A DNA stretch of 28,733 nt, from the IMG/VR virus record IMGVR_UViG_3300035136_000101, one strand, 5' to 3'. The first letter of the stretch is position 1. Every line of letters begins with the position of its first letter. A program made the translations under genes and the position numbers. This stretch comes from a virus. Shown piece after piece: positions 5,559 through 22,625 of this stretch. Under the pieces are notes generated by a model, which ran no database searches, was not told the origin of the DNA, and was given only the letters and a program-made list of their open reading frames with translations.

Positions 5559-5882
5559 ATGAGGAATAGATTATCTGATTTTATTATTGATAAGCCGGTT
5601 AAAGAGGAACATGTATTATCTTACAAAGGTAAACGTCTTTTTAGGGCATTAAAATCCTTGGGAGAACGTTCCATTAAAGGACGTGATGTTGATAAATATA
5701 TTTTTGAAGTTGTATATAAAAATGGTGTAGAAACATTAAGAATGCTTATCGAAGGTAGACATGCTTTATCTATTAGTAATCAGATAGCAAAAGGACTTTC
5801 AAATATGGACGAACTCGAGTTCGTTGATGTTGTGAAAACAAAAAATGGTGCGAAGATTGTACTTCGTTCTATTGGAGAGTAG
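5559..5882 (+). CDS. hypothetical protein (107 aa); it contains one copy of the CGAACTCGAGTTCG palindrome in its coding sequence
   Basis: A complete ORF with a GGAATTGG RBS. The palindrome encodes DELEFVD. Confidence 0.4.
   Translation: MRNRLSDFIIDKPVKEEHVLSYKGKRLFRALKSLGERSIKGRDVDKYIFEVVYKNGVETLRMLIEGRHALSISNQIAKGLSNMDELEFVDVVKTKNGAKIVLRSIGE
5809..5824. repeat. palindrome ACGAACTCGAGTTCGT (copy 1 of the CGAACTCGAGTTCG motif), inside a CDS
   Basis: Read directly from the sequence. It is a perfect 16-bp palindrome. Confidence 0.9.
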
Positions 5883-5891
5883 GAGAGTAAA

Positions 5892-6302
5892 ATGGGAAAA
5901 TTAAAGATATATTCTGATAGTATAGATGAGTTACTGGTTAATAGGGTTGATGCTGATGTAATGAGTGAATCATCTGAGTTAGGTAATGATGATGAAAAGA
6001 TTGATGAGGCTTGGAAGATTGAAGACTATATGTTTAATTTCGTTTCGGTAAAAGCTTTGGTTGCGTTGTCATTGTCGATAGTAAAGCGAATGAAAGGCAG
6101 TGCTCTTTCTAAATTTCAAGGAAAATTATCTGATATTGATAATGAGATGGAAAAAGAAATAGACAGAATGGATAGCAAAAAAGAGATGGAATTTAATAAA
6201 TTATATATGAAAAAGATAAAAGGTGTTAAGGCTAAAATATTAGAAGAATTTGGTGGCGATTTTTTGAAAGAAATTGAAGAAGATAAAAGGGAAAAAGAAT
6301 GA
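5892..6302 (+). CDS. acidic coiled-coil protein, putative tail assembly chaperone (gpG-like)
   Basis: A 136-aa highly acidic protein with a strong AGGAGAG RBS. It lies between the tube and tape-measure genes, where G/GT chaperones are found. It ends in an A-run (GGGAAAAAG) and overlaps the next ORF, which is in the -1 frame. Confidence 0.4.
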   Translation: MGKLKIYSDSIDELLVNRVDADVMSESSELGNDDEKIDEAWKIEDYMFNFVSVKALVALSLSIVKRMKGSALSKFQGKLSDIDNEMEKEIDRMDSKKEMEFNKLYMKKIKGVKAKILEEFGGDFLKEIEEDKREKE

Positions 6303-6598
6303 CAATATCTTCTGGTAATATTGCTGGTGTGATAAAACCTATTGGAATGTTAAAATTACCGTGGTGTCCATGTAGTGGTAGAATTTGTAAAATTGAAGAA
6401 ATTCCAGTTAATAAAAAGAAGAAGAGAAAGATTAGTGTGTATGAGATATTGAATATTGATGGTCATACTATGCTTGAAGAAGCAAGAGAAAAACGTCATA
6501 TTGTGAACGGTAAACGTGGAATATGGCGCACAATAAGAGGAAGGCATTATTTTTTTCCGGATGATAAATCAGGTGTTATTCCTCCAATTAAGGGTTAA
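6299..6598 (+). CDS. basic protein; possible T-extension of a G/GT-like chaperone, or an independent small protein
   Basis: A 99-aa Lys/Arg-rich ORF in the -1 frame relative to 5892..6302, with an ATGA overlap. Its frame is open only from 6287, inside the A-run. Confidence 0.35.
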   Translation: MTISSGNIAGVIKPIGMLKLPWCPCSGRICKIEEIPVNKKKKRKISVYEILNIDGHTMLEEAREKRHIVNGKRGIWRTIRGRHYFFPDDKSGVIPPIKG

Positions 6599-6600
6599 TA

Positions 6601-6810
6601 ATGGTTATTATGAAGGATATTATAGAGTCTAGTGGTTCAGAAATGATGGAGGGTATTTCATATGGTGCTGCTGAGAAGTTAGCAGATAATATGATAAAAA
6701 ATCCTAGAAGTGTAGCTATGTTGGATAGATATGGTGTTGAGGCATCTGAGGATATTACTAGATTGAAAGATGCTCTAGTTAAATTTCTAATAAATTATTT
6801 TAAGAGATAA
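6601..6810 (+). CDS. hypothetical small protein (69 aa)
   Basis: A complete ORF in the operon. An alternative ATG lies at 6610. Confidence 0.3.
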   Translation: MVIMKDIIESSGSEMMEGISYGAAEKLADNMIKNPRSVAMLDRYGVEASEDITRLKDALVKFLINYFKR

Positions 6811-6822
6811 TAAAAAAATTGA

Positions 6823-6838
6823 TGTTTCACGTGAAACA
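6823..6838. promoter_or_regulatory. 16-bp perfect palindrome TGTTTCACGTGAAACA, a candidate operator
   Basis: Read directly from the sequence. It is perfectly self-complementary and lies 7 nt upstream of the 6845 ATG, abutting its AGAGAGG RBS. Confidence 0.4.
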
Positions 6839-6844
6839 GAGAGG

Positions 6845-7144
6845 ATGTGTAAGATGTGTAAAAAGAAGACTGTAAATGTTGTGAATTCTGATGATTTGAG
6901 GAAGAAAGTTTCTGATGTTGAGATATTTGGTAATCCAGATACTTTTCAGTTAATTTGTAAGGCAAGTTCCAAAAATGAAGGATGGATGAAGTCAACAAAG
7001 GCTATGGAGATTCCCGGAAGAGGATGTATAATACAAGTTTCTACACAGCAAGGTGATAATGTTGCAGAAGCTATTTGTTTTGTTCCGGATGTTGTTATTT
7101 TAGTTGATGATGAAAGTGGAAATAAAAAGATAGTAAAAGGATAA
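6845..7144 (+). CDS. hypothetical protein (99 aa, N-terminus MCKMCKKK)
   Basis: A complete ORF with an RBS. It is the last plus-strand gene before the inverted regulatory insert. Confidence 0.35.
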   Translation: MCKMCKKKTVNVVNSDDLRKKVSDVEIFGNPDTFQLICKASSKNEGWMKSTKAMEIPGRGCIIQVSTQQGDNVAEAICFVPDVVILVDDESGNKKIVKG

Positions 7145-7154
7145 TAATTGTGTT

Positions 7155-7505
7155 TTATGTCAAACACTTATTGATCCATTCAGTAATGAGAGCATCATAG
7201 ATTTCACAGACATCGCATGGTTTAGTAAGAATATGTATATTGGGCATATCATATTTGAGTGTATAGTTTGCTGTATATATTACGAATGGTATTGTTGAAT
7301 GTTGAACTATTTTTAGTCCGTCTGATTTGTTTGGGCAATCCCAATCACTAAGGATTATGTCAAAATTTCCGTCTTGAAGAGCTATTAGTCCATCATCACA
7401 GGAATGTTTTATTGTTATACTTTTCCAAGTATTTTTCATTACTCTGGAAAGCATACGGGTAATTTGTTCATCATCATCGATGATTAGTAAATTCAGGTTT
7501 TTCAT
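7155..7505 (-). CDS. stand-alone response regulator receiver (CheY-like REC) domain protein
   Basis: LLIIDDDEQI…DIILSDWDCPNKSDGL…FVIYTAN…ILTKP carries all the conserved REC residues: the acidic DD pair, the phospho-acceptor Asp, Thr and Lys. It is 116 aa with no output domain. Confidence 0.75.
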   Translation of the reverse strand: MKNLNLLIIDDDEQITRMLSRVMKNTWKSITIKHSCDDGLIALQDGNFDIILSDWDCPNKSDGLKIVQHSTIPFVIYTANYTLKYDMPNIHILTKPCDVCEIYDALITEWINKCLT

Positions 7506-7512
7506 TGTTTTT

Positions 7513-7722
7513 TTACCATACGGCTATTTGTTTTTTGCATGAATCACAAGGTTCAGTGTTTGATTTGGAGAGATGTGAATTCATAATAAAAATAGCAGTT
7601 CCTTCTTTTTCTAGTTGTTTAGCACATTCTATACAATAGAGATAACCTCTGTTGTCGACTATTCCTGTAATTGTATTATTTGGGTCATTTTTTTGATAGA
7701 TATAAATTTCTGAGGCTTTCAT
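7513..7722 (-). CDS. small Cys4 zinc-ribbon protein
   Basis: 69 aa with C-x2-C…(25)…C-x2-C (CIECAKQ…CDSCKK). It lies 7 nt upstream of the REC gene on the same strand, with an AAAGGAA RBS. Confidence 0.5.
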   Translation of the reverse strand: MKASEIYIYQKNDPNNTITGIVDNRGYLYCIECAKQLEKEGTAIFIMNSHLSKSNTEPCDSCKKQIAVW

Positions 7723-7738
7723 TAGTTTGTTCCTTTCT

Positions 7739-7755
7739 GTCGAAATCTTATCGAC
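7739..7755. promoter_or_regulatory. inverted repeat GTCGA-n7-TCGAC in the 5' leader of the minus-strand operon
   Basis: Read directly from the sequence. It lies between the predicted minus-strand -10 element and the RBS of the zinc-ribbon gene. Confidence 0.3.
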
Positions 7756-7766
7756 TATCTATATGA

Positions 7767-7794
7767 ATATTAACATTATGATAAAGTTTGTCAA
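7767..7794 (-). promoter_or_regulatory. sigma70-like promoter for the zinc-ribbon/REC operon
   Basis: The minus strand reads TTGACA, then a 16-nt spacer, then an extended -10 TGtTAATAT. Confidence 0.5.
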
Positions 7795-7821
7795 TTTTTT
7801 TGATAAAAAAATGCAAAAGTG

Positions 7822-7851
7822 TTGATAATAATAGCAGAAAAGTGGTATTAT
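7822..7851 (+). promoter_or_regulatory. sigma70-like promoter for the RHH gene and the downstream operon
   Basis: TTGATA (7822-7827), an 18-nt spacer, TATTAT (7846-7851), followed by an AGGAAGG RBS and the ATG at 7884. Confidence 0.4.
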
Positions 7852-7883
7852 TTACTCAAGTAGTGTTTTAGGAAGGTTGTTAT

Positions 7884-8063
7884 ATGCCAAGGTTGAATGT
7901 TGAAATAAAAAGTGGTGTATATAAGAGGTTTCTTGATCAATGTAAGGAGGATGGTAGAAGTGCTAGTGATGTTGTTAGAGAGTTGATTTTAGATTATGTG
8001 GAGAGAAGAGTTAGGGAAAAATTTAGGATTGCTAAAATAGAGAAAGAAGTTACAGATGAATGA
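7884..8063 (+). CDS. ribbon-helix-helix (CopG/Arc/ParD-like) DNA-binding protein, 59 aa, not in the ORF track
   Basis: ATG at 7884 is preceded by AGGAAGG. MPRLNVEIKSGVYKRFLDQCKEDGRSASDVVRELILDYVERR fits an RHH beta-strand plus two helices. The stop at 8061-8063 overlaps the next gene's ATG at 8056. Confidence 0.6.
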   Translation: MPRLNVEIKSGVYKRFLDQCKEDGRSASDVVRELILDYVERRVREKFRIAKIEKEVTDE

Positions 8064-8883
8064 GATGAACGATGAAAAGGTTATCGATGATAAAATTGTA
8101 TTAGGTAAGACAAAAGGTCATGTTCTTGATATAGGGCCAGGTTGTATTACTATTGAGTTGCCAGCAGGATATATTCATGAGGATGGAGAGCTTCACGTGC
8201 ATGCTGTATTACGTGAGATGAAGGGACCAGAAGAAGAATTGTTGGCTAGTAAAGGTTCAATAGTTTCTAGATTGAATGTTATAATGGGGAATTGTTTAGA
8301 GCAAATAGGGTCTATTAGTGATAAGTCTTTATTAAGAAAGATAGCTTGTAATTTGATAGCTCAAGATAGGATGGCTATTCTTTTGGCTCTTCGTAGGATA
8401 TCACTTGGTGATTTTTATGATTGTACAGTTACATGTCCAGAGTGTAATGTGAGTCAGCATGTTACGGTAAATTTATCAGAAATTGAAATTTCACCAATGC
8501 CAAATAGGATGGAAAGAGAAATGATTAATACTCTTCCTAGTGGAAGAGAAATTAAATGGCATGTGATAAGGACAGAAGATGAAGAATGGCTTACAGAGCA
8601 GCGTAAAAGAAAAAGAGATAAAGAACTTTTAACATTACATTTATTGTCTCGTGTTGATTCGATTGATGATATTGAAGTAGATAGAAAGAATAAGTATAAA
8701 GAAGCTATTGATTTGTTGATGGATTTATCGATAAGGGATAGAGCTACTTTGAGAGATCTTTTTGATAAAAAAGAAGATAATATAGATACGTTGGTGCAGT
8801 TTATGTGTGAGAGGTGTGGACATGAATGGGAAGGTAAGTTGGATGTTGGTCAGCCAAGTTTTTTCTTCCCATCGGTCAAATAG
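8056..8883 (+). CDS. hypothetical protein with two CxxC…CxxC zinc-ribbon motifs (275 aa)
   Basis: CTVTCPECN and CERCGHEW motifs are present. The gene is translationally coupled to the RHH gene. I recognise no family. Confidence 0.5.
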   Translation: MNEMNDEKVIDDKIVLGKTKGHVLDIGPGCITIELPAGYIHEDGELHVHAVLREMKGPEEELLASKGSIVSRLNVIMGNCLEQIGSISDKSLLRKIACNLIAQDRMAILLALRRISLGDFYDCTVTCPECNVSQHVTVNLSEIEISPMPNRMEREMINTLPSGREIKWHVIRTEDEEWLTEQRKRKRDKELLTLHLLSRVDSIDDIEVDRKNKYKEAIDLLMDLSIRDRATLRDLFDKKEDNIDTLVQFMCERCGHEWEGKLDVGQPSFFFPSVK

Positions 8884-9065
8884 GTGTCCTTGAGGATGAA
8901 ATATTTTATTTAATGGAAAGACAAGGACAGAGTTATTTGACCATTATGAATATGCCATATTCAAGAAGAAAGCGGTTTGTAGAAAAAAAATCTTCATTAG
9001 ATAGGTCTGCTATGAATGTTAAAAAGAATCAACAAAATTATAGCAGACCAAGACGAAGAAGGTAA

Positions 9066-9079
9066 CGAACTCGAGTTCG
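9066..9079. repeat. palindrome CGAACTCGAGTTCG (copy 2), 12 nt upstream of the tape-measure ATG
   Basis: Read directly from the sequence. It is a perfect 14-bp palindrome. Confidence 0.9.
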
Positions 9080-9090
9080 CGAGGTAAATT

Positions 9091-12075
9091 ATGGGTTTTC
9101 TTGGTATGTCATTAGAATTATCAGCTATTGATGATGGTATGAAATCAGCCATAGGGAAAGCAAGTGATTTACTTAATAATATAAATGAAATGATTCATGA
9201 CCAATTTAATGCGATAAGGAAGATAAAAAAAGAGGATTTTTTTAAAGGTATAAAAAGTGGTGCACAACAAGCTATTAAATCTATTAAGGATTTAAGTTTT
9301 GATTTTAAGTCGTTTTCTAATTTATTAGATAAGGTTGGAAAAAAATCATATGAGGTTTGGAAAAAGTTTGGAGATGGAATAAAAAAAGTTTCAGATGATT
9401 CTAAGAAACATATTGATAGTATGATGAAGCGTGTAACGCAGTTTAATATTGCTAATATGGCTTCAAATATGAAAACACTTACAGGGGAGACTGGTAATTT
9501 AACTAATAGTTTAGAAGCAACAATGACTAGTTTAATTCAAACGACAAAACCAATTGCTGCAACATTAGATTTATCAGGAAAGGAGATGAAGAAGTTTGCA
9601 GGTCAAGCGGCAAGTATGGCTTATAGTATGAATACATCGGCTGATGCTGTTGCAGAAACAATGAGATCAATTCATATAGCTAATAAGGGGGCAACAGAGG
9701 CTATGAATGAATTGGGATTGTCTACAAAAGATTGGGTTAAAGTTGTTCAAACAACTAATGTTCCTATGTCTGAATATACGGCTATTCTTGGTGATATGAC
9801 AACAAGTTGGCAAGCTTCACCAAAAGAGGCCGCTAATATGATTGACAGCCTTATGGCAATAGGAAAGGCTGCTGGAACTGGAACTGGTGCTGTAAAGAAT
9901 GCAAAAGTTCAGTTGGATGAATTAGGGGAAGTTTTTAAAACTTTGCCTCCTTCTATGGCAAGAACTTCTGATGAGATAATGAGCTTAATGCAATCATCAG
10001 CTAGAATGTCTGGTGTATTTAGAGAGATGGGAGATACGCAAGAAGAAGCTATAACAAAGGCAAATACTGTAGCAAGGATGTTTGCTGAACAGGATGTTGC
10101 TATTAGAAAAGCTTTAAATATTGGTGATGAACGTGCTCTTATGGATAATCCATTGCTTAAGTATCTTATGAGACTTGGTATTGGATTTGATTCGGCCAGA
10201 AAGATTATTGAAACTGGTAGTCGTGATGTAGTTGCTGGTATGAAGATGGTTAATAATGTTTATGCACGTTTTGGAACTGATGTGTCTCCACAGGTTCAAA
10301 GAGCTTTATCTGGATTAAGTGGTGCTCTTGGGGAAGGAGCTGCTGGATTATCATATTTGGCGACTAATACAAAACAAGGAACTGCTGCATTAGATAAAAT
10401 GGCAAATATGTCTGTTGTAGGTTCTGGAGCATTAAAGAAATTTGGAAAAGATGCATATAGTTCCGGGTTAACCTTACAAGAAACGTATGATAGAGCAAAA
10501 GAGTCATTTGATACAACTATTAGAAGTATATCCAGAGGAGATGTTAGAGGATTAGTTAGAAAACAGATAGAAGGAATGCGTCAAGCTGGTAAGGAATTAA
10601 AAAAACTTGGTTCTGATGAGACTTGGGGACCATGGATAAATGCTTTATCAAGATTTAGACAAATGGGTGTAGGTGGTATATTTTCAAGTGTTGCAGAGTC
10701 TACTGGCGTTGGTGCTGAAAATGCTGCTAAATTTGGTACCAAAGCAGGATTAATATTTGATACGGTAAGTCAACTTGGGGGTGAAATTGCTCCATTAATG
10801 CATTTATTTGGTATGACTGGTCCGCTAGGTCCATTGATTGCTATGGGAGGGTTAGGTGCATTGTTGGCTATGGATGAAGCTACTAGTAAGAAAATTTTAG
10901 GGTCATTTTATGATACATTTGCATCTTTAAAAAAGATGCTTCTTGGTGTTTGGGATGTATTTACTGATAAATTTGTTAGTATTTGGGATAATACAATAGC
11001 TCCAAAAATATCAGAAATTTGGAGTGAAATGTTATTGCCATATCTTGAGGAAACTACTCCAAGGATAGGAAAAGTATTTTTAGATGCATTCAAGTGGGCG
11101 TGGGATGCATTTTGGAGGGGAGATATGGAACAAGCACTTCTTGATGCAGAGAGGTTGAAAAAAACGGGTGTTTCTGGTCTTAGTGATAGAAAACTTGAAG
11201 AAATGTCTAAACGGAATGAAAAGGTTATAGAAGAAGAAACTAAAAATATAAATAGTCTTAAAACACTTACCATGGGAATGGGTGGTATTTCTGGTGGGTA
11301 TGCTCTTATGTATGCACCTGAGAGTAGGAAAATTGAAAAGGTTGAAGAATCTCAAAAAGCAATAGAGAGACAAAAAAAGTTTAGGAGAGATTTGGAAAAA
11401 TATGGGGCACCAAAGGCTGATATATTCACAGATGTAGCAGGTGTTTTTAGCGATTGGTCGGAAGGTGCAAAAAGTGGTGGAACAACTACTGGTGATTCAT
11501 TTGTTGAAGGAATTACAGATTCTTTGAAGAAGGGAAAAGATGTAGTTGATAAAAATGCAGGTTACGTAGCAGAAGGTGTGATATCTGAATCTCCAATTAA
11601 ATCTGGACCATTGGCTGGAGAGAAGGAAAATAATGCTGCATATCGTGGTGGTTATTTTACAATGGAGCAATTTGCTTTAGGTATTACTGATAGTACTGAT
11701 ATGATTAAGAGAGCAATTGAAGATACTCTTGCTGATTCTGTTATACTTACTATAGATACATATGCTGAAAAAATGAGAGATCTTGCTGAACAAAAGATGT
11801 TTTTAGCATCTGTTGCTAAAGCAATGGTAAAAGATTTAGGTGGAAATATAGAAACATCTATTGATTCCGAATCTGATATAAATGTGAAAAAGAATTTTGA
11901 AGCTGCTATGAATTTACCTGGTCTTGCTAGTGTTGTTTTGGCTGTTTCAAATGAAGGTGCTCAAACAAGGAAATTATTAAAACGTATTTTAGAAGAAAAT
12001 ATACGTCAAACCAGTGTAATGAGTGGCGGTGTGAGTATTTCTGTGACAGGAACTACTACTCCACCACCAAGTTGA
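9091..12075 (+). CDS. tail tape measure protein-like (994 aa)
   Basis: A long, helical, Ala/Met/Lys/Gly-rich protein with a hydrophobic Gly-rich segment (PLMHLFGMTGPLGPLIAMGGLGALLAM). It sits between the chaperone-like genes and the baseplate hub, with a GAGGT RBS. Confidence 0.65.
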   Translation: MGFLGMSLELSAIDDGMKSAIGKASDLLNNINEMIHDQFNAIRKIKKEDFFKGIKSGAQQAIKSIKDLSFDFKSFSNLLDKVGKKSYEVWKKFGDGIKKVSDDSKKHIDSMMKRVTQFNIANMASNMKTLTGETGNLTNSLEATMTSLIQTTKPIAATLDLSGKEMKKFAGQAASMAYSMNTSADAVAETMRSIHIANKGATEAMNELGLSTKDWVKVVQTTNVPMSEYTAILGDMTTSWQASPKEAANMIDSLMAIGKAAGTGTGAVKNAKVQLDELGEVFKTLPPSMARTSDEIMSLMQSSARMSGVFREMGDTQEEAITKANTVARMFAEQDVAIRKALNIGDERALMDNPLLKYLMRLGIGFDSARKIIETGSRDVVAGMKMVNNVYARFGTDVSPQVQRALSGLSGALGEGAAGLSYLATNTKQGTAALDKMANMSVVGSGALKKFGKDAYSSGLTLQETYDRAKESFDTTIRSISRGDVRGLVRKQIEGMRQAGKELKKLGSDETWGPWINALSRFRQMGVGGIFSSVAESTGVGAENAAKFGTKAGLIFDTVSQLGGEIAPLMHLFGMTGPLGPLIAMGGLGALLAMDEATSKKILGSFYDTFASLKKMLLGVWDVFTDKFVSIWDNTIAPKISEIWSEMLLPYLEETTPRIGKVFLDAFKWAWDAFWRGDMEQALLDAERLKKTGVSGLSDRKLEEMSKRNEKVIEEETKNINSLKTLTMGMGGISGGYALMYAPESRKIEKVEESQKAIERQKKFRRDLEKYGAPKADIFTDVAGVFSDWSEGAKSGGTTTGDSFVEGITDSLKKGKDVVDKNAGYVAEGVISESPIKSGPLAGEKENNAAYRGGYFTMEQFALGITDSTDMIKRAIEDTLADSVILTIDTYAEKMRDLAEQKMFLASVAKAMVKDLGGNIETSIDSESDINVKKNFEAAMNLPGLASVVLAVSNEGAQTRKLLKRILEENIRQTSVMSGGVSISVTGTTTPPPS

Positions 12076-12083
12076 GATATAAA

Positions 12084-12473
12084 ATGAGTATTGGAACAGA
12101 CCCAAATCCAAAGAAGAATTTATTGAGAGCTAGTACATTTTCTTATATGAATTTTATGCCTGAGCAGTTGATTTATGATAAGGAAAAGAATAATTTGATT
12201 AGATTTAGATCTATGTTTGAAATGCCTAATTGGGATGGTGTGGAGGATGGAGAATTTAGTTATGTTATTAGTGGGCAAAATGAACGTTTGGATAAAATAG
12301 CTGCTAAATTTTGGGGAATTGATAGACAGGAACTTTATTGGGTAATTGCAGCAAGAAACAATTTGGATCTTCCAGATGTTCAACTTTATCAAGGTAGGAC
12401 AATAAAAATTCCATCTAAAAGTTGGATAGATACATATTTGTTACCTCAAACACAGAATTATATTGAAAGATGA
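12084..12473 (+). CDS. LysM-domain tail protein (gpX / XkdP-like)
   Basis: The C-terminal YVISGQNERLDKIAAKFWGIDRQELYWVIAARNNLDLPDVQLYQGRTIKIPS fits a LysM fold. I place the start at ATG 12084 rather than the track's TTG at 12072. The gene overlaps the next by ATGA. Confidence 0.7.
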   Translation: MSIGTDPNPKKNLLRASTFSYMNFMPEQLIYDKEKNNLIRFRSMFEMPNWDGVEDGEFSYVISGQNERLDKIAAKFWGIDRQELYWVIAARNNLDLPDVQLYQGRTIKIPSKSWIDTYLLPQTQNYIER

Positions 12474-13798
12474 CAGTTAGATTTATAGATCCTGTTGCAC
12501 AAGTAATAATCAAAGACCATGAAAGTGGTGAGGAATGGCATTGGGGGTCTCCATCACATCCTTTTTTGACTTCTCTGACTATGATATGGGAAGGTGATAT
12601 GGTTATAACTGGCATAGTTATAGGTGTAGATATGCCTTATGATTATGCTATGACTGCGCTTGATGCATCAAAAACGCCATTTAAGAAAGATAATCTTGTG
12701 AGAGTTAGAATGGGATATGCATCAGGGGAATGGACAGAATGGGCTCATGGTGTATTAGCTGTTGGAGGAAAAGGATTATCAATAGGACCAGATGGTTTAT
12801 CTGGTAATTTAGAAGTTAGTCATGTACCGATGAAGCTATCGGGATATACAGTTTCGAAAGATATCTTGAAGAATGCTGGCTATGATGTTGAAAAATTATT
12901 AAAATTACTAGGGGAAGAGATAGGTTGCGAAGTTGATATAACATCAAATGCTTTATCAAATATGAATGCATGGAAACTTGCTGAACCAAGAACGATTTCT
13001 TATAAAGAAAAGGCTAATTTCTATGCTGGTCTTGAAGGTATGAGTATTTGGCAAATTTTTAGAACTGTTTGTAAAGATAATGATTGTTCATTTTTTATTA
13101 AGAAATATAAGGGTGAGAAGACAATAATTGTTCATACTGAAAAAGATATAACGAGTGGTAATTTGAATGAAACTGATTATGTAAATAAATATGTAATAAG
13201 AGGTATTGTAGACCCTTTAAATAATCAATATCCTTGTTTTGGATTTACACCTAAATCTGATGAGGCAGTGTGGTTGAGTAGGATACCTAGTTCTGCGTCA
13301 GCAGGAACAAATGGTAGGGGAATAGATTCTGAGACTGCTGAAGATGTTGAATATGATGTTAGGTCTGAAGACCAAGAAGATGCAAGAGATGGTAAAGTTG
13401 AGAATACTGAGCCACAAGATATAAAAACATCTGATGGATATGAAAAATATATAGCTGATGCTTTTAAAAATGATGGTTCTCTTGGAACTTTTATGAGTGC
13501 ACCAATTTTACCATATGGAACAGAAATTTTTAAAAATCAGGTTAGAAAATTTCAACGTCAAGGTGATCCTGGTATGCATATGGAAATAAACAGTATTGGT
13601 GTTCCTAGTGAAATGGTTGGTAATCTTTGTCAGTTGTGGGGTGCTGGTGTGTTATTTAATGGTACGTTTTGTATAGAGAAGATGGTTCATTCGTGGAGTC
13701 CTGGTTCATGGGAAATGCGATTGAATGTTTATAGACGTGGATATAAGGCTGTGTCTGGAGAGCAGAAAGAATCTTCTGGAGGTCAGCTTCCAAAATGA
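12470..13798 (+). CDS. baseplate hub protein (gpD / XkdQ / gp27-like)
   Basis: Sits between the LysM protein and the spike. The blocks LVRVRMGYASGEWTEWAHGVLAVGG and MSIWQIFRTVCKDNDCSFFIKKY are compatible with the gpD family. It overlaps both neighbours by ATGA. Confidence 0.5.
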   Translation: MTVRFIDPVAQVIIKDHESGEEWHWGSPSHPFLTSLTMIWEGDMVITGIVIGVDMPYDYAMTALDASKTPFKKDNLVRVRMGYASGEWTEWAHGVLAVGGKGLSIGPDGLSGNLEVSHVPMKLSGYTVSKDILKNAGYDVEKLLKLLGEEIGCEVDITSNALSNMNAWKLAEPRTISYKEKANFYAGLEGMSIWQIFRTVCKDNDCSFFIKKYKGEKTIIVHTEKDITSGNLNETDYVNKYVIRGIVDPLNNQYPCFGFTPKSDEAVWLSRIPSSASAGTNGRGIDSETAEDVEYDVRSEDQEDARDGKVENTEPQDIKTSDGYEKYIADAFKNDGSLGTFMSAPILPYGTEIFKNQVRKFQRQGDPGMHMEINSIGVPSEMVGNLCQLWGAGVLFNGTFCIEKMVHSWSPGSWEMRLNVYRRGYKAVSGEQKESSGGQLPK

Positions 13799-14745
13799 AA
13801 TGGATTGAATGGCTTAGGGATTATCTTGCAGATGTTACGCATGGTCTAGAGAGGTTCTGCGGTAGATATTATGGTAGTTATTTAGGAAGGGTAATTGATA
13901 TAGCAGACCCTGATAACAGGGGAAGGATAAGAGCTACATGTCCAGCTATAAATATGCCAAAGGCTGAAGATGTTCCAGGTGGATATTGGATATTACCATG
14001 TATGCCAGGGTTAGGAGAGGATTCTGATGGAAAAATGACTGGTATATTTCATCCTCCTGAAGAAGGTTCCCTTGTATGGATTCAGTTTGAATTTGGTGAT
14101 CCAAGAAAACCTTTATATATGGGAGGATTTTTAACAACTAGAAATACTTCCGATACATTTTTTTCTGATGATGCTGAAAAAAAAGGGCCATCAAAGAGAG
14201 GTATAAGAACAAAAGCTGGTCATTTTTTGAGGTTCAATGATGATCCAGATAAGTTGGAAATTACAATTGCTAGAGGAGATGGTGAAGGAGAGTCAACATC
14301 TCAATTTATAAGTATGACAACAGAAGGTCATACACTGATAACGAATAGTAATGGGTCTTCATTATATATGAATGCTGAAGATAATGAAACTACACTTCAG
14401 ACATTGGATTCTAATGGAAATGTATTATCGATGCTTTTTCTAGGTGATGACAAGATTACTTTGACTACAAAGTCAGGTGGTGCAATAGGTATAGATGGGA
14501 AAGATATTGTGTTAACAGGGGATAATGTTGTTGCAGATGCAAATAAACAATTTTCTGCAAATGCTGGTACTGTAATGCTTGGAAAAGGTGCATCTGAGCC
14601 AGCAATTAGGGGCAATAAGTTTGCTATTGGTTGGGGAATTATGCATCAGCATACTTCTACTGCTCCAGGAAGCCCTACAACACCAGGTGCAACACCTCCT
14701 GTGATGCTTTATAGAGAATTAAGTGAGAATGTTTTTATATCATGA
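13795..14745 (+). CDS. baseplate spike (gpV / VgrG-like OB-fold plus a beta-helical C-terminus)
   Basis: GRVIDIADPDNRGRIRATCP…GGYWILPCMPGLGEDSDGKMTGIFHPPEEGSLVWIQFEFGDPRKPLYMGG matches the Phage_base_V consensus. The C-terminal repetitive beta-strand region (…LITNSNGSSLYMNAEDNETTLQTLDSNGNVL…) is typical of a spike. Confidence 0.75.
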   Translation: MKWIEWLRDYLADVTHGLERFCGRYYGSYLGRVIDIADPDNRGRIRATCPAINMPKAEDVPGGYWILPCMPGLGEDSDGKMTGIFHPPEEGSLVWIQFEFGDPRKPLYMGGFLTTRNTSDTFFSDDAEKKGPSKRGIRTKAGHFLRFNDDPDKLEITIARGDGEGESTSQFISMTTEGHTLITNSNGSSLYMNAEDNETTLQTLDSNGNVLSMLFLGDDKITLTTKSGGAIGIDGKDIVLTGDNVVADANKQFSANAGTVMLGKGASEPAIRGNKFAIGWGIMHQHTSTAPGSPTTPGATPPVMLYRELSENVFIS

Positions 14746-15095
14746 GTAAATGTAAAATTGCATTATTACCTGTTCCTGGATTAGCGATACCTATTCCACA
14801 ACCACCATTTAGTATGCCGTCAAGGCCAAAGATACCTGGGATTCCAAAGACTCCTAATATACCTGGAATAAGTATTGAGGTTAAAATTCCAAAGTTAGCG
14901 ATACCTATACCGCAACCACCATTTAGTATGCCGGCAATACCTAAGATACCTAGGATTCCCGGTAAAGTACCTGGTATTGCGATTAGGGATTTTTCTGTTA
15001 AATTGGCAGTTCCTATACCACAACCACCATTTAGTATGCCAGCAAGGCCAAAGATACCTAATGTTCCTAAATTGCCAAGATGTCCTTTGGATTAA
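14742..15095 (+). CDS. proline-rich three-repeat protein at the PAAR/spike-tip position (non-canonical)
   Basis: 117 aa with three tandem repeats of LA(I/V)PIPQPPFSMP(S/A)xPKIP at 38/36-aa spacing. It overlaps the spike gene by ATGA and lies immediately upstream of the gp25-like gene. The other two forward frames are closed. Confidence 0.5.
   Translation: MSKCKIALLPVPGLAIPIPQPPFSMPSRPKIPGIPKTPNIPGISIEVKIPKLAIPIPQPPFSMPAIPKIPRIPGKVPGIAIRDFSVKLAVPIPQPPFSMPARPKIPNVPKLPRCPLD
14781..15060 (+). repeat. three in-frame tandem direct repeats (114 and 108 nt) inside the Pro-rich gene
   Basis: The core gcgatacctat(t/a)cc(a/g)caaccaccatttagtatgcc recurs at 14784, 14898 and 15006. Confidence 0.8.
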
Positions 15096-15098
15096 TTG

Positions 15099-15112
15099 CG
15101 AACTCGAGTTCG
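15099..15112. repeat. palindrome CGAACTCGAGTTCG (copy 3), in the intergenic gap before the gp25-like gene
   Basis: Read directly from the sequence. It shares the extended flank CGAACTCGAGTTCGTTG with copy 1. Confidence 0.9.
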
Positions 15113-15131
15113 TTGTGATAGGGTATAGAAT

Positions 15132-15560
15132 ATGAGTATTGTTAATACGGTTCCTTCTGCAAAAGATTTGGATATTATTAAGACGTTCAAGTTTCCATTT
15201 CAAATTGGTGCTGTTGGTTTTCCAGAAATGGAAGATCCAACAAAATATAGTTTTGCAAATATTGTAGCATTGCTTTTGACTGGTGTTGGAGAGAGGGTGA
15301 TGAATGTTGGCCTTGGGGTGAATGTTCATGATTTTTTGTTTTCAAATATGACACCTATTCAACAGGTTCGTCTTTCAAGTATGGTATCTACTGCTATAGA
15401 AACATTTATACCATGGGTTAATGTTATAAGTGTAATTCCTAGTCAATTGAAGTATGATGATGGTATTGGTTCTAAAATAACGTTTGATATTACGTATTCT
15501 GTTGGAGGACAGGACAGTACTCAACAAATAATTTATCCACCAACTGTACAAGGGTATTAA
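15132..15560 (+). CDS. baseplate wedge protein (gp25 / GPW-like)
   Basis: ANIVALLLTGVGERVMNVGLGVNVHDFLFSNM matches the GPW/gp25 core (iL.T..GeR…fG…l…lF). An AGGGT RBS is present. Confidence 0.75.
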   Translation: MSIVNTVPSAKDLDIIKTFKFPFQIGAVGFPEMEDPTKYSFANIVALLLTGVGERVMNVGLGVNVHDFLFSNMTPIQQVRLSSMVSTAIETFIPWVNVISVIPSQLKYDDGIGSKITFDITYSVGGQDSTQQIIYPPTVQGY

Positions 15561-21725: not shown

Positions 21726-21746
21726 TAATAATATGAGAGGTATTTG

Positions 21747-22625
21747 ATGAATATATATTATATAAATTTGGACCGTTCAGAAGATAGAAGAGAAAAAATG
21801 GAGAAATCTTTTGAGCATGAAAAATTAATAAGGATATCCGCTATAGATGGCATGGAATGGGCTATTGAAGATACGTTTGATACTAGAGGGTTTCCTGTAT
21901 GGAATTTAGAGTATCGTGATAAATTTGTTAATGAAGGTATATTATTTGAAAATAGTATTCTTCCACCAACTCATGTTGCGTGTAATTTAAGTCATAGAAA
22001 GGCTATTCAGGAGTTTTTGAATACTGATGATGAATGGGCAATTATTATGGAGGATGATGTTGAAAAGTCAAAAGCTTATTTTAAAGATGGAGAATTGATA
22101 GAAAAAAAAGTAGTTATTCCTAGTGATGCTGATATGTTTTATTTATGTGGGACAAGACCAGATAGACGGATATACGTTTTTGATGATGGTCAAGTTAGAA
22201 AAACTAGGACATTGATGGGATATTGTATATCAAGAAGAGGTGCTGAATTATTTTTAAAATCAACAATACCAATGATGTGGCTTTCTGATTATCAATTTCC
22301 TGTTTGTTGTTTTGATAGTATGTTAAATAATATAAGAGAGATTAAAATAAGAGATAGAAAAATAGTTTTTAAAAAGCGTATATTATTTAAAGAGAACAAA
22401 GATGATAAAGGAAATATTATAAGGAAGAAAAAGGAATGTGTTTCATTTTCAATTCCAAATAAAGATAACTATAGGACTATAAAACCAATTTTTCCAAAGG
22501 AAATAGAAAGTGAAGAAAAGATAAAAGCTTTTGCTGATAAAAAAGATGGTTTAATAAGACATTCTATTTTGTCTAAGCAATCATTACTTGGTAATTATGA
22601 AGGACATGGGAAAAGATTTTATTGA
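21747..22625 (+). CDS. glycosyltransferase family 25 (LgtB/Lic2A-type LOS glycosyltransferase-like)
   Basis: The N-terminus NIYYINLDRSEDRREKMEKSFEHEKL…ISAIDG matches the GT25 signature (IsL.rs.eRR…AvDG). I place the start at ATG 21747, 6 nt after a GAGAGG RBS. The track's start at 21744 is a TTG. Confidence 0.7.
   Translation: MNIYYINLDRSEDRREKMEKSFEHEKLIRISAIDGMEWAIEDTFDTRGFPVWNLEYRDKFVNEGILFENSILPPTHVACNLSHRKAIQEFLNTDDEWAIIMEDDVEKSKAYFKDGELIEKKVVIPSDADMFYLCGTRPDRRIYVFDDGQVRKTRTLMGYCISRRGAELFLKSTIPMMWLSDYQFPVCCFDSMLNNIREIKIRDRKIVFKKRILFKENKDDKGNIIRKKKECVSFSIPNKDNYRTIKPIFPKEIESEEKIKAFADKKDGLIRHSILSKQSLLGNYEGHGKRFY

Follow-up and report, generated by a model that had tools for sequence, protein, structure and literature searches.

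The palindromic 14-mer CGAACTCGAGTTCG occurs three times in IMGVR_UViG_3300035136_000101, a viral DNA of 28,733 nt (hereafter "the window," i.e., the whole stretch analyzed), and, judged by its conservation in related genomes, it is a functional, sequence-specific site under strong purifying selection. The motif forms the core of a 16-bp unit, R-CGAACTCGAGTTCG-Y (i.e., R-CGAAC-TCGA-GTTCG-Y), that recurs at gene junctions throughout the genome of this phage lineage and in a second, unrelated phage. The interpretation that we favor, and to which we give about an even chance, is that the unit would be a multi-copy site for a homodimeric DNA-binding protein, acting as a roadblock or insulator at module boundaries.

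An invariant 16-bp unit at gene junctions

A scan of the window for CGAACTCGAGTTCG returned three exact copies (Table 1) and no other match at up to two mismatches. The motif did not appear in any of 100 dinucleotide-preserving shuffles of the window, and its analytic chance expectation at the window's composition (34% G+C) is ~4e-5 per 40 kb. Together, these results rule out a chance origin of the repeats, as the initial annotation of this DNA had argued. The contexts that it described, one copy inside an open reading frame (ORF) and two at the junctions ahead of the tape-measure and gp25-like genes, were likewise confirmed, as was the longer sequence that it saw in copies 1 and 3 (a TTG extension); its coordinates are right for copies 2 and 3 and one base off for copy 1, which it placed at 5811-5824. 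Copy 1 is translated as D-E-L-E-F-V, and the next ATG (5892) lies 68 nt downstream. A 50-aa ORF (8913-9065) ends directly before copy 2, the last base of its TAA stop (9063-9065) being the purine at -1, and the copy is followed by a Shine-Dalgarno (SD) sequence, GAGG (9081-9084), and, 11 nt from the motif, by the ATG of the tape-measure gene. Copy 3 lies 3 nt past the TAA (15093-15095) of a Pro-rich ORF, and the ATG of the gp25-like gene follows after 19 nt. All three copies are kept in every assembly of the phage. Since JGI and Logan assemblies made independently from many samples agree on the motif positions, an assembly or cloning artifact was ruled out. Literature matches for the 14-mer were short hairpin RNA (shRNA) constructs.

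When the window was extended, three further exact copies were found, one 813 nt upstream (L148:1569) and two downstream (L124:15077 and L124:18162), so that the 40.3 kb covered of the window's phage hold six copies, all of them exact, and no near match. A scan of IMG/VR for CGAACTCGAGTTCG gave mostly single, evidently chance matches in GC-rich contigs, and it also gave low-GC contigs with several copies each, most of which were tied to the window's lineage by protein comparison. The lineage contigs that carry the motif span head genes, DnaB, a methylase, GroES, tRNA arrays, and many small ORFs, at a density of roughly one copy per 5-7 kb, with at least 23 distinct junctions or sites in the pan-genome. 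The motif thus occurs across the whole genome in this lineage and is no tail-locus signal: tail specificity is ruled out by the copies in head, replication, tRNA, and small-gene regions. The enrichment at tail loci for which the initial annotation proposed a genome-wide count is not borne out, copies being spread through non-tail regions and an unrelated phage. That annotation had also named a uniform density with no positional preference as the pattern that would speak against a function; the density is indeed similar genome-wide, but the preference for junctions is very strong.

The unrelated phage is a 38-kb myovirus contig, IMGVR_UViG_3300035136_000034, which has seven exact copies in similar positions and encodes its own tape-measure and baseplate genes, one HTH_36 protein, and one Bro-N protein. 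It shows no DNA similarity to the window's phage and essentially no protein similarity, and both motif-bearing phages come from samples with neighboring JGI numbers. Since two unrelated phages carry the identical site, a common trans-acting reader is implied, supplied either by the host or by a phage gene that has been shared horizontally. The identity of the site in both phages would be readily accounted for if the host encoded this reader. Protein comparison for a regulator common to the two phages yielded only one weak shared domain. This sole similarity between the 38-kb phage and the large-phage lineage is a stretch of ~50 aa (L132:298-549 and L065:6041-6460; 37% identity, E = 3e-5), which has no assigned function, is not obviously DNA-binding, and is the only shared candidate.

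Across 32 distinct instances, a purine at -1 and a pyrimidine at +1 were present in 63 of 64 half-sites. At 17 of 19 clearly intergenic sites, the motif lies 0-4 nt past the stop codon of the upstream co-directional gene, and the terminal purine of that stop often doubles as the -1 base. Between the motif and the next start codon there are usually 7-20 nt and at times 58-120 nt, in which case the motif stays by the stop; a typical junction runs from the stop codon through 0-4 nt to the motif and on to the ribosome-binding site or a promoter of the following gene. At L132:2261, for example, a promoter (TTGACA-16-TGaTAGTAT) is located downstream of the motif, and one copy of the second phage lies ~24 nt upstream of a -35 box. 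Approximately 80% of sites fall at junctions, although nearly all sequence in these genomes is ORF.

Comparison with relatives at ~95% (L146), ~80% (L270), and ~72% (L147) nucleotide identity (72-84% for the latter two at the junction sites) showed how closely the unit is kept. At the tape-measure junction, the motif is exact in L146 and at L270:873 and reads TGAACTCGAGTTCG at L147:3956, with a 6-nt indel directly beside it, whereas at the gp25 junction it is exact in L146, at L270:6969, and at L147:9973, with indels on both sides. The sole change at the two junction sites is thus C1 to T in one case, while neighboring bases diverge and indels of 3-6 nt adjoin. Copy 1, within a gene, is unchanged in L146 and also at L128:656, in a fourth lineage that is more distant, where it belongs to a 29-nt identical block that includes synonymous positions. 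Other intragenic copies are read in other frames (RTRVR, TNSSS). Because intragenic copies use different frames, the constraint acts on the nucleotides and not on the protein; a protein-coding repeat was ruled out, since three reading frames are used overall and most copies are non-coding. One-mismatch variants anywhere numbered four, all of them transitions at the outermost position, and a search of 243 kb of related loci for GAAC-N4-GTTC gave 42 matches, 41 of them with the TCGA center. TCGA as such is strongly rarer than expected in the large phage (49 vs. ~129 from base composition in 40.3 kb), and the motif carries one TCGA and three CpG despite this depletion; in the 38-kb phage, TCGA is not under-represented.

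With the exception of one pair, non-orthologous copies share nothing past the 16 bp. Since shared flanks are absent, identity is kept by selection on the 14-16-bp unit and not by the spreading of a longer element. A miniature mobile element was ruled out, there being no conserved flank and no target duplication, and the miniature repeated element that the initial annotation had entertained falls with it. In the exceptional pair, window positions 15089-15115 (copy 3) and L136:2449-2475 (on a 42-kb contig) are identical over 27-28 nt (TGGATTAATTG + motif + TTG) at unrelated junctions; such identity is far above chance for one pair and may reflect conversion or transfer between motif copies.

Table 1. 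Motif copies, predicted genes, and predicted RNA features (window positions unless a locus is given).
Feature	Position	Strand	Remarks
Motif copy 1	5810..5823	.	inside 107-aa ORF 5559-5882; codons GAC GAA CTC GAG TTC GTT
Motif copy 2 with flanks, A-CGAACTCGAGTTCG-C	9065..9080 (motif 9066-9079)	.	junction ahead of tape-measure gene
Motif copy 3 with flanks, G-CGAACTCGAGTTCG-T	15098..15113 (motif 15099-15112)	.	junction ahead of gp25-like gene
Extended predicted hairpin around copy 1	5797..5837	+	17 pairs, two bulges
Tape-measure-like gene	9091..12075	+	994 aa, typical composition; first gene of module after copy 2
gp25-like baseplate wedge gene	15132..15560	+	PF04965, E = 7e-8; first gene of module after copy 3
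Transfer-messenger RNA (tmRNA) of relatives	L142:7009-7360; L224:7133-7483		Rfam 115-128 bits; tag peptides AKNNYPDLAEAA, VRHNDSKVLAEAA
Pro-rich ORF	14742..15095		117 aa
REC-domain gene	7155..7505	-	antisense island (7155-7884)
Zinc-ribbon gene	7513..7722	-	antisense island
Ribbon-helix-helix (RHH)-like gene	7884..8063	+	faces the island
'Lockin' (PF26760) domain protein gene	6845..7144		accessory gene
Family-25 glycosyltransferase gene	21744..22625		accessory gene, among fiber genes
Papain-like peptidase gene	L124:13492-14310		accessory gene, downstream

Recognition as DNA or as RNA

The dyad symmetry of the motif runs through its TCGA center, which a hairpin loop would not need. Watson-Crick or G-U pairing between the -1 and +1 flanks was not enriched (18 observed vs. 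15.1 expected), and no pairing above expectation was seen at further flank positions in the 32 instances. Given a symmetry that includes the center, flanks that are symmetric in R/Y and do not pair, no compensatory variation, and only a marginal hairpin, we favor a dimer on duplex DNA. A dimeric regulator's operator, the first possibility raised in the initial annotation, is accordingly the best fit to the symmetry data. In the mechanism that we propose, the 16-bp dyad would be read on double-stranded DNA by one homodimeric sequence-specific protein supplied in trans, and many junctions between genes or modules would carry a copy, placed by the phage between the upstream stop and the next ribosome-binding site or, occasionally, promoter. 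The occupied site would block or insulate against read-through of RNA polymerase into the next module, as mycobacteriophage stoperators do, so that expression of successive modules would depend on the state of the binding protein. The placement after the upstream stop, and upstream of the promoter where one is present, fits an insulator or roadblock against read-through by analogy with those systems.

As RNA, the core would fold into a 5-bp stem, CGAAC/GUUCG, with a UCGA loop (-4.4 kcal/mol), and this hairpin is missing from the minimum free energy fold at copy 2, where alternative folds win. Copy 1 is located in an extended predicted hairpin (Table 1) of -15.8 to -16.1 kcal/mol (z = -2.3 to -3.6), its L128 orthologue is predicted to fold similarly (-18.8 kcal/mol; two sequences compared), and L140:532 also lies in a longer hairpin (-15.6 kcal/mol, z = -3.4); no general stem extension was seen across copies. 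Rfam gave no relevant match in the window at E <= 1. No sigma-70-like promoter was found beside the three window copies and no intrinsic terminator (GC-rich stem of at least five pairs plus a U tract) was called at them, TTTT following only some copies outside the window; identity as an intrinsic terminator or sigma-70 promoter was therefore not supported at the window copies. The T4 late promoter, TATAAATA, was neither enriched nor associated with the motif.

These results bear on an RNA-level alternative, in which a hairpin in the polycistronic mRNA, directly after the upstream stop, would be read by an RNA-binding protein or endoribonuclease and set the stability or translation of the cistrons, or would load a termination or antitermination factor in the manner of lambda boxB/nut. 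We regard this as unlikely, yet it is a serious possibility. All assignable sites lie in transcribed junctions between co-directional genes, and the stop anchoring, usually with 7-20 nt left before the ATG, fits an RNA-level element as well as it fits a site on DNA; the longer hairpins at a few copies (copy 1, with its similarly folding orthologue, and L140:532) are better explained by RNA and, with the co-directional placement, tell against recognition on DNA. Invariance would also be expected of a hairpin recognized by a protein, and boxB-type hairpins equal the motif hairpin in size. On the other side, the core hairpin is marginal and loses to other folds at copy 2, a palindromic loop is unnecessary (1/16 by chance), and the -1 and +1 positions are constrained symmetrically to R/Y with no preference for pairing. 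The four outermost variants split 2:2 between those preserving a U·G pair and those leaving a C·A mismatch (mRNA sense), compensatory variation is nil, no Rfam family matches, and the window copies have no U-tract terminator. At L132:2261, moreover, the promoter is downstream of the motif, and the gene's own transcript would consequently be without it. The hairpin or processing site suggested in the initial annotation thus retains the stop anchoring and the longer hairpins at some copies in its favor and loses ground by the weakness of the core. Should the element act on RNA after all, it would amount to a small and portable signal for processing or insulation.

Candidate readers and comparable phage repeats

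Returning to a dimeric protein on DNA, LexA or a LexA-like protein is the leading candidate, since the half-sites, the spacing, and the -1/+1 flanks equal those of the Gram-positive LexA box; we put the candidate forward tentatively, and it would carry somewhat less than half, or at most half, of the weight that we give to a homodimeric roadblock as a whole. The half-sites, spacing, and length of the motif are those of CGAAC-N4-GTTCG, although this consensus may not be the host's. In Bacillus and Staphylococcus, the Cheo/LexA box is CGAAC(N4)GTTCG (PMC9578287, Table 1; PMC9700832, methods), and in the Firmicutes lexA-promoter consensus, TACGAACATATGTTCGTA (tACGAAC....GTTCGTa), an A precedes and a T follows the core (PMC2248561), with which the R/Y flanks of the motif are compatible. 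Phages under LexA control are on record, e.g., GIL01 and the jumbo prophage pBtic235 (PMC9700832).

Several observations weigh against LexA and, in part, against a roadblock protein of any kind. The center is an invariant, GC-rich TCGA (41/42), whereas the centers of LexA regulons are variable and AT-rich (CGAAC-RNRY-GTTYC); positions 6 and 9 of the motif depart from the R and Y of the LexA center, and there is virtually no degeneracy. Unlike ordinary SOS boxes, the motif copies do not overlap sigma-70-type promoters, and their number is large for a LexA regulon. Pfam scans of 122 ORFs of relatives, 20 of the window, and 10 of the 38-kb phage gave no LexA_DNA_bind, S24 peptidase, or ParB match; the matches of DNA-binding type were limited to three Xre-type helix-turn-helix (HTH) proteins, one HTH_36, one weak RHH, and Bro-N/ANT proteins. 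Two of the Xre-type proteins are encoded at L142:12257-12523 and L224:2007-2270. A tblastn search of the sampled phage DNA with B. subtilis LexA (an approximate query sequence) was also negative. Matches to the 14-mer in Firmicutes genomes are uninformative in this respect, as they looked like single chance occurrences in GC-richer sequence, none of them near a LexA homologue. Finally, the phage is T4-like and presumably lytic; since the T4-like group is classically lytic, silencing of the repressor type is less expected.

Should LexA be the reader, a T4-like phage and an unrelated phage of the same host might exploit host LexA or a TCGA-reading derivative of it as a genome-wide roadblock or sensor ("SOS stoperators"), gating middle and late expression on DNA damage, or they might titrate LexA during replication and so induce the SOS response in undamaged cells. 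This is a speculative scenario and rather improbable. If the reader does prove to be LexA, it would represent a new route by which a phage, even of a nominally lytic type, couples expression of its whole genome to the SOS state, and the match to the LexA box turns an unexplained repeat into a directly testable hypothesis.

A more local regulator was also considered, namely that the motif is an operator of the RHH, zinc-ribbon, or REC-domain proteins encoded in the window (Table 1) and serves the tail operon only. RHH tetramers can read dyads of 14-20 bp, and an RHH-like protein (weak Pfam matches) is encoded ~1 kb upstream of copy 2. Copies are, however, found genome-wide, in head, replication, tRNA, and small-gene regions, as well as in a second phage with no detectable homologues of these genes in the 29 kb sampled, and the island's divergent promoter region (7722-7884) has neither a copy nor a half-site. 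We therefore consider this explanation very unlikely, and the link to these three proteins that the initial annotation had attached to its dimeric operator is not supported. The island has features of its own: the RHH-like gene faces the two antisense genes across a spacer of 160 bp in which good sigma-70-like promoters diverge (7767-7851), and the gene content differs among close relatives, with extra small ORFs in L003.

A third alternative is that the unit serves a DNA transaction, either as a recombination junction at which modules are shuffled, as proposed for the promoter/stem-loop cassettes (PeSLs) of T4-type phages, or as a target for nicking, cutting, or methylation, e.g., for clamp loading in late transcription or recombination-dependent replication. 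Copies do lie at module boundaries. In one 2.7-kb contig (sample 3300042731), a gene for a 317-aa N6/N4 DNA methylase is situated directly upstream of a gp25 gene with an identical protein, and two other contigs begin 4 nt after copy 3 (L006/L007); the methylase variant and the contig starts suggest population-level variation exactly at the copy-3 junction (15096-15131). The identity of copy 3 with the unrelated L136 junction points the same way, T4-type phages shuffle genes at conserved terminator/promoter cassettes (PMC4122927, PMC2839356), and Type II enzymes read sites of this sort, perfect palindromes with a core such as CTCGAG. Nevertheless, 14-16 bp is very short for homologous exchange, flanking identity between copies was seen in one pair only, gene order at the tape-measure and gp25-like junctions is conserved in four lineages, and the other indels between close relatives (6600-7500 and 10934-11567) do not map to the motif. 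We judge a DNA-transaction site improbable. As to a recognition site built on the XhoI core, a further suggestion of the initial annotation, CTCGAG shows neither avoidance nor enrichment outside the motif (2 vs. ~3.8 expected), which does not bear it out.

Short invariant multi-copy junction sites recur in phage genomes, and, to our knowledge, a function has been established only for the stoperators of Cluster A mycobacteriophages. At these sites of the L5/Bxb1-type immunity repressor, one bound protein stops transcription elongation (PMC9283540, PMC6550527). Like the motif described here, stoperators (13-14 bp) are many near-identical sites in short intergenic gaps genome-wide, structural operons included. 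However, they are asymmetric, bound by a monomer, and oriented with transcription, whereas our motif is a perfect palindrome with symmetric flanks. Their repressor is encoded by the phage, and the phages are temperate; here, no repressor gene was found in the sampled DNA and the phage looks T4-like. Xre-type HTH and ANT/Bro-N proteins are present in the sampled part of the genome, but its T4-like core argues against temperance.

Cluster O mycobacteriophages offer a parallel in number and invariance, with 34 invariant 17-bp dyad repeats, 5'-TGTTCGGNNNCCGAACA, which were predicted by their authors to be bound by a dimeric protein with a role outside transcription initiation and which have lacked an explanation since they were described (Cresawn et al., 2015, PMC4351075). 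In both cases there are tens of copies with invariant inverted halves, genome-wide and mostly off promoters, and the few extra sites differ at one position; approximately two-thirds of the Cluster O repeats are at or near gene boundaries and one-third inside genes. Those repeats have 7-bp arms and a variable 3-bp spacer (TGTTCGG-NNN-CCGAACA), in contrast to the continuous 14/16-bp palindrome with an invariant center found here. They also belong to an actinobacterial siphovirus and not a T4-like myovirus, and the present motif is anchored to stops (0-4 nt) and common to an unrelated phage.

Other known elements resemble the motif less completely. The LexA box has identical half-sites, spacing, and length, and its flanking A/T fits R/Y, but SOS boxes overlap promoters and number one to few per element, as opposed to dozens of sites with an invariant TCGA at promoterless junctions. 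The start-associated sequences (SAS) of Cluster K mycobacteriophages, which are asymmetric and contain the ribosome-binding site, are likewise short conserved repeats by many gene starts, whereas our motif is symmetric and keeps its place relative to the upstream stop, its distance to the ATG varying from 7 to 120 nt. SAS are closely linked to translation initiation sites (PMC4351075). The PeSLs are T4-type terminator/promoter cassettes (PMC2839356, PMC4122927), similarly repeated conserved stem-loop intergenic elements at gene boundaries in a T4-like lineage, and have been implicated in indels at those boundaries. They are, however, longer composites that include an early promoter and are concentrated in hyperplastic regions, while the motif is a bare 16-bp palindrome, usually promoterless, and is also found inside conserved late (tail/baseplate) modules. 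Invariant junction repeats as such are thus already known from stoperators, Cluster O, SAS, and PeSLs. What is new is a continuous 16-bp palindrome in a T4-like uncultivated lineage with a tmRNA and >20 tRNAs, the presence of the identical site in an unrelated phage, and its coincidence with the LexA box, i.e., a match to a known class of operator.

The phage and its tail module

By its predicted gene content, the window is a contractile-tail module, with genes for a sheath, two gp19-like tube proteins, a T4_baseplate-like protein, a tape measure, a Phage_base_V spike, a gp25-like protein, and large baseplate or fiber proteins; the tape-measure gene was placed relative to the T4_baseplate-like ORF and the LysM/hub/spike genes. 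The phage is contained in several JGI and Logan assemblies, the longest contig being Ga0373597_0000001 with 158 kb (L001). Its relatives encode a T4-type portal (Portal_T4) and a gp23-like capsid protein, carry >20 tRNAs, and have a tmRNA (Table 1), and the motif adjoins their tRNA arrays (e.g., L131:5594 and L099:8333). Because of the T4-type portal, the gp23-like capsid, the tRNAs, and the tmRNA (128 bits), the window's phage is classified from its genes as a large, distant T4-like myovirus of a bacterium. The bacterial host uses strong SD sequences of the GGAGG type.

The only multi-copy match in a scan of genomes was a GTDB species-representative metagenome-assembled genome (MAG), 'uncultured archaeon binchicken_co196_315.' An archaeal host was ruled out, since the matching contigs proved to be DNA of the phage, with a genuine tmRNA. 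The contigs in question (L149, L224 = CAYUTF010000008.1, and L244 = CAYUTF010000016.1; 65 kb and 53 kb) are bacteriophage DNA that has been mis-binned; they are orthologous to L133 and L131, with the tmRNA and tRNAs on the 65-kb contig. Having already exposed these contigs, the 16-mer can serve in practice to recruit contigs of related phages and may also help to link phage to host.

Within the module, the tape-measure protein of 994 aa in the window compares with 1024 aa in L001, and over the stretch 10934-11567 the central DNA cannot be aligned to that contig although the flanks are 94-99% identical, marking a replaced or rearranged segment. The Pro-rich ORF contains three internal repeats of ~57 nt (…AIPIPQPPFSMP(S/A)RPKIP…) with mutual identities of 74-94%, and it occupies the place expected of a spike-tip or PAAR-like protein. 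Accessory genes in or near the module encode a 'Lockin' domain protein, a family-25 glycosyltransferase, and a papain-like peptidase (Table 1).

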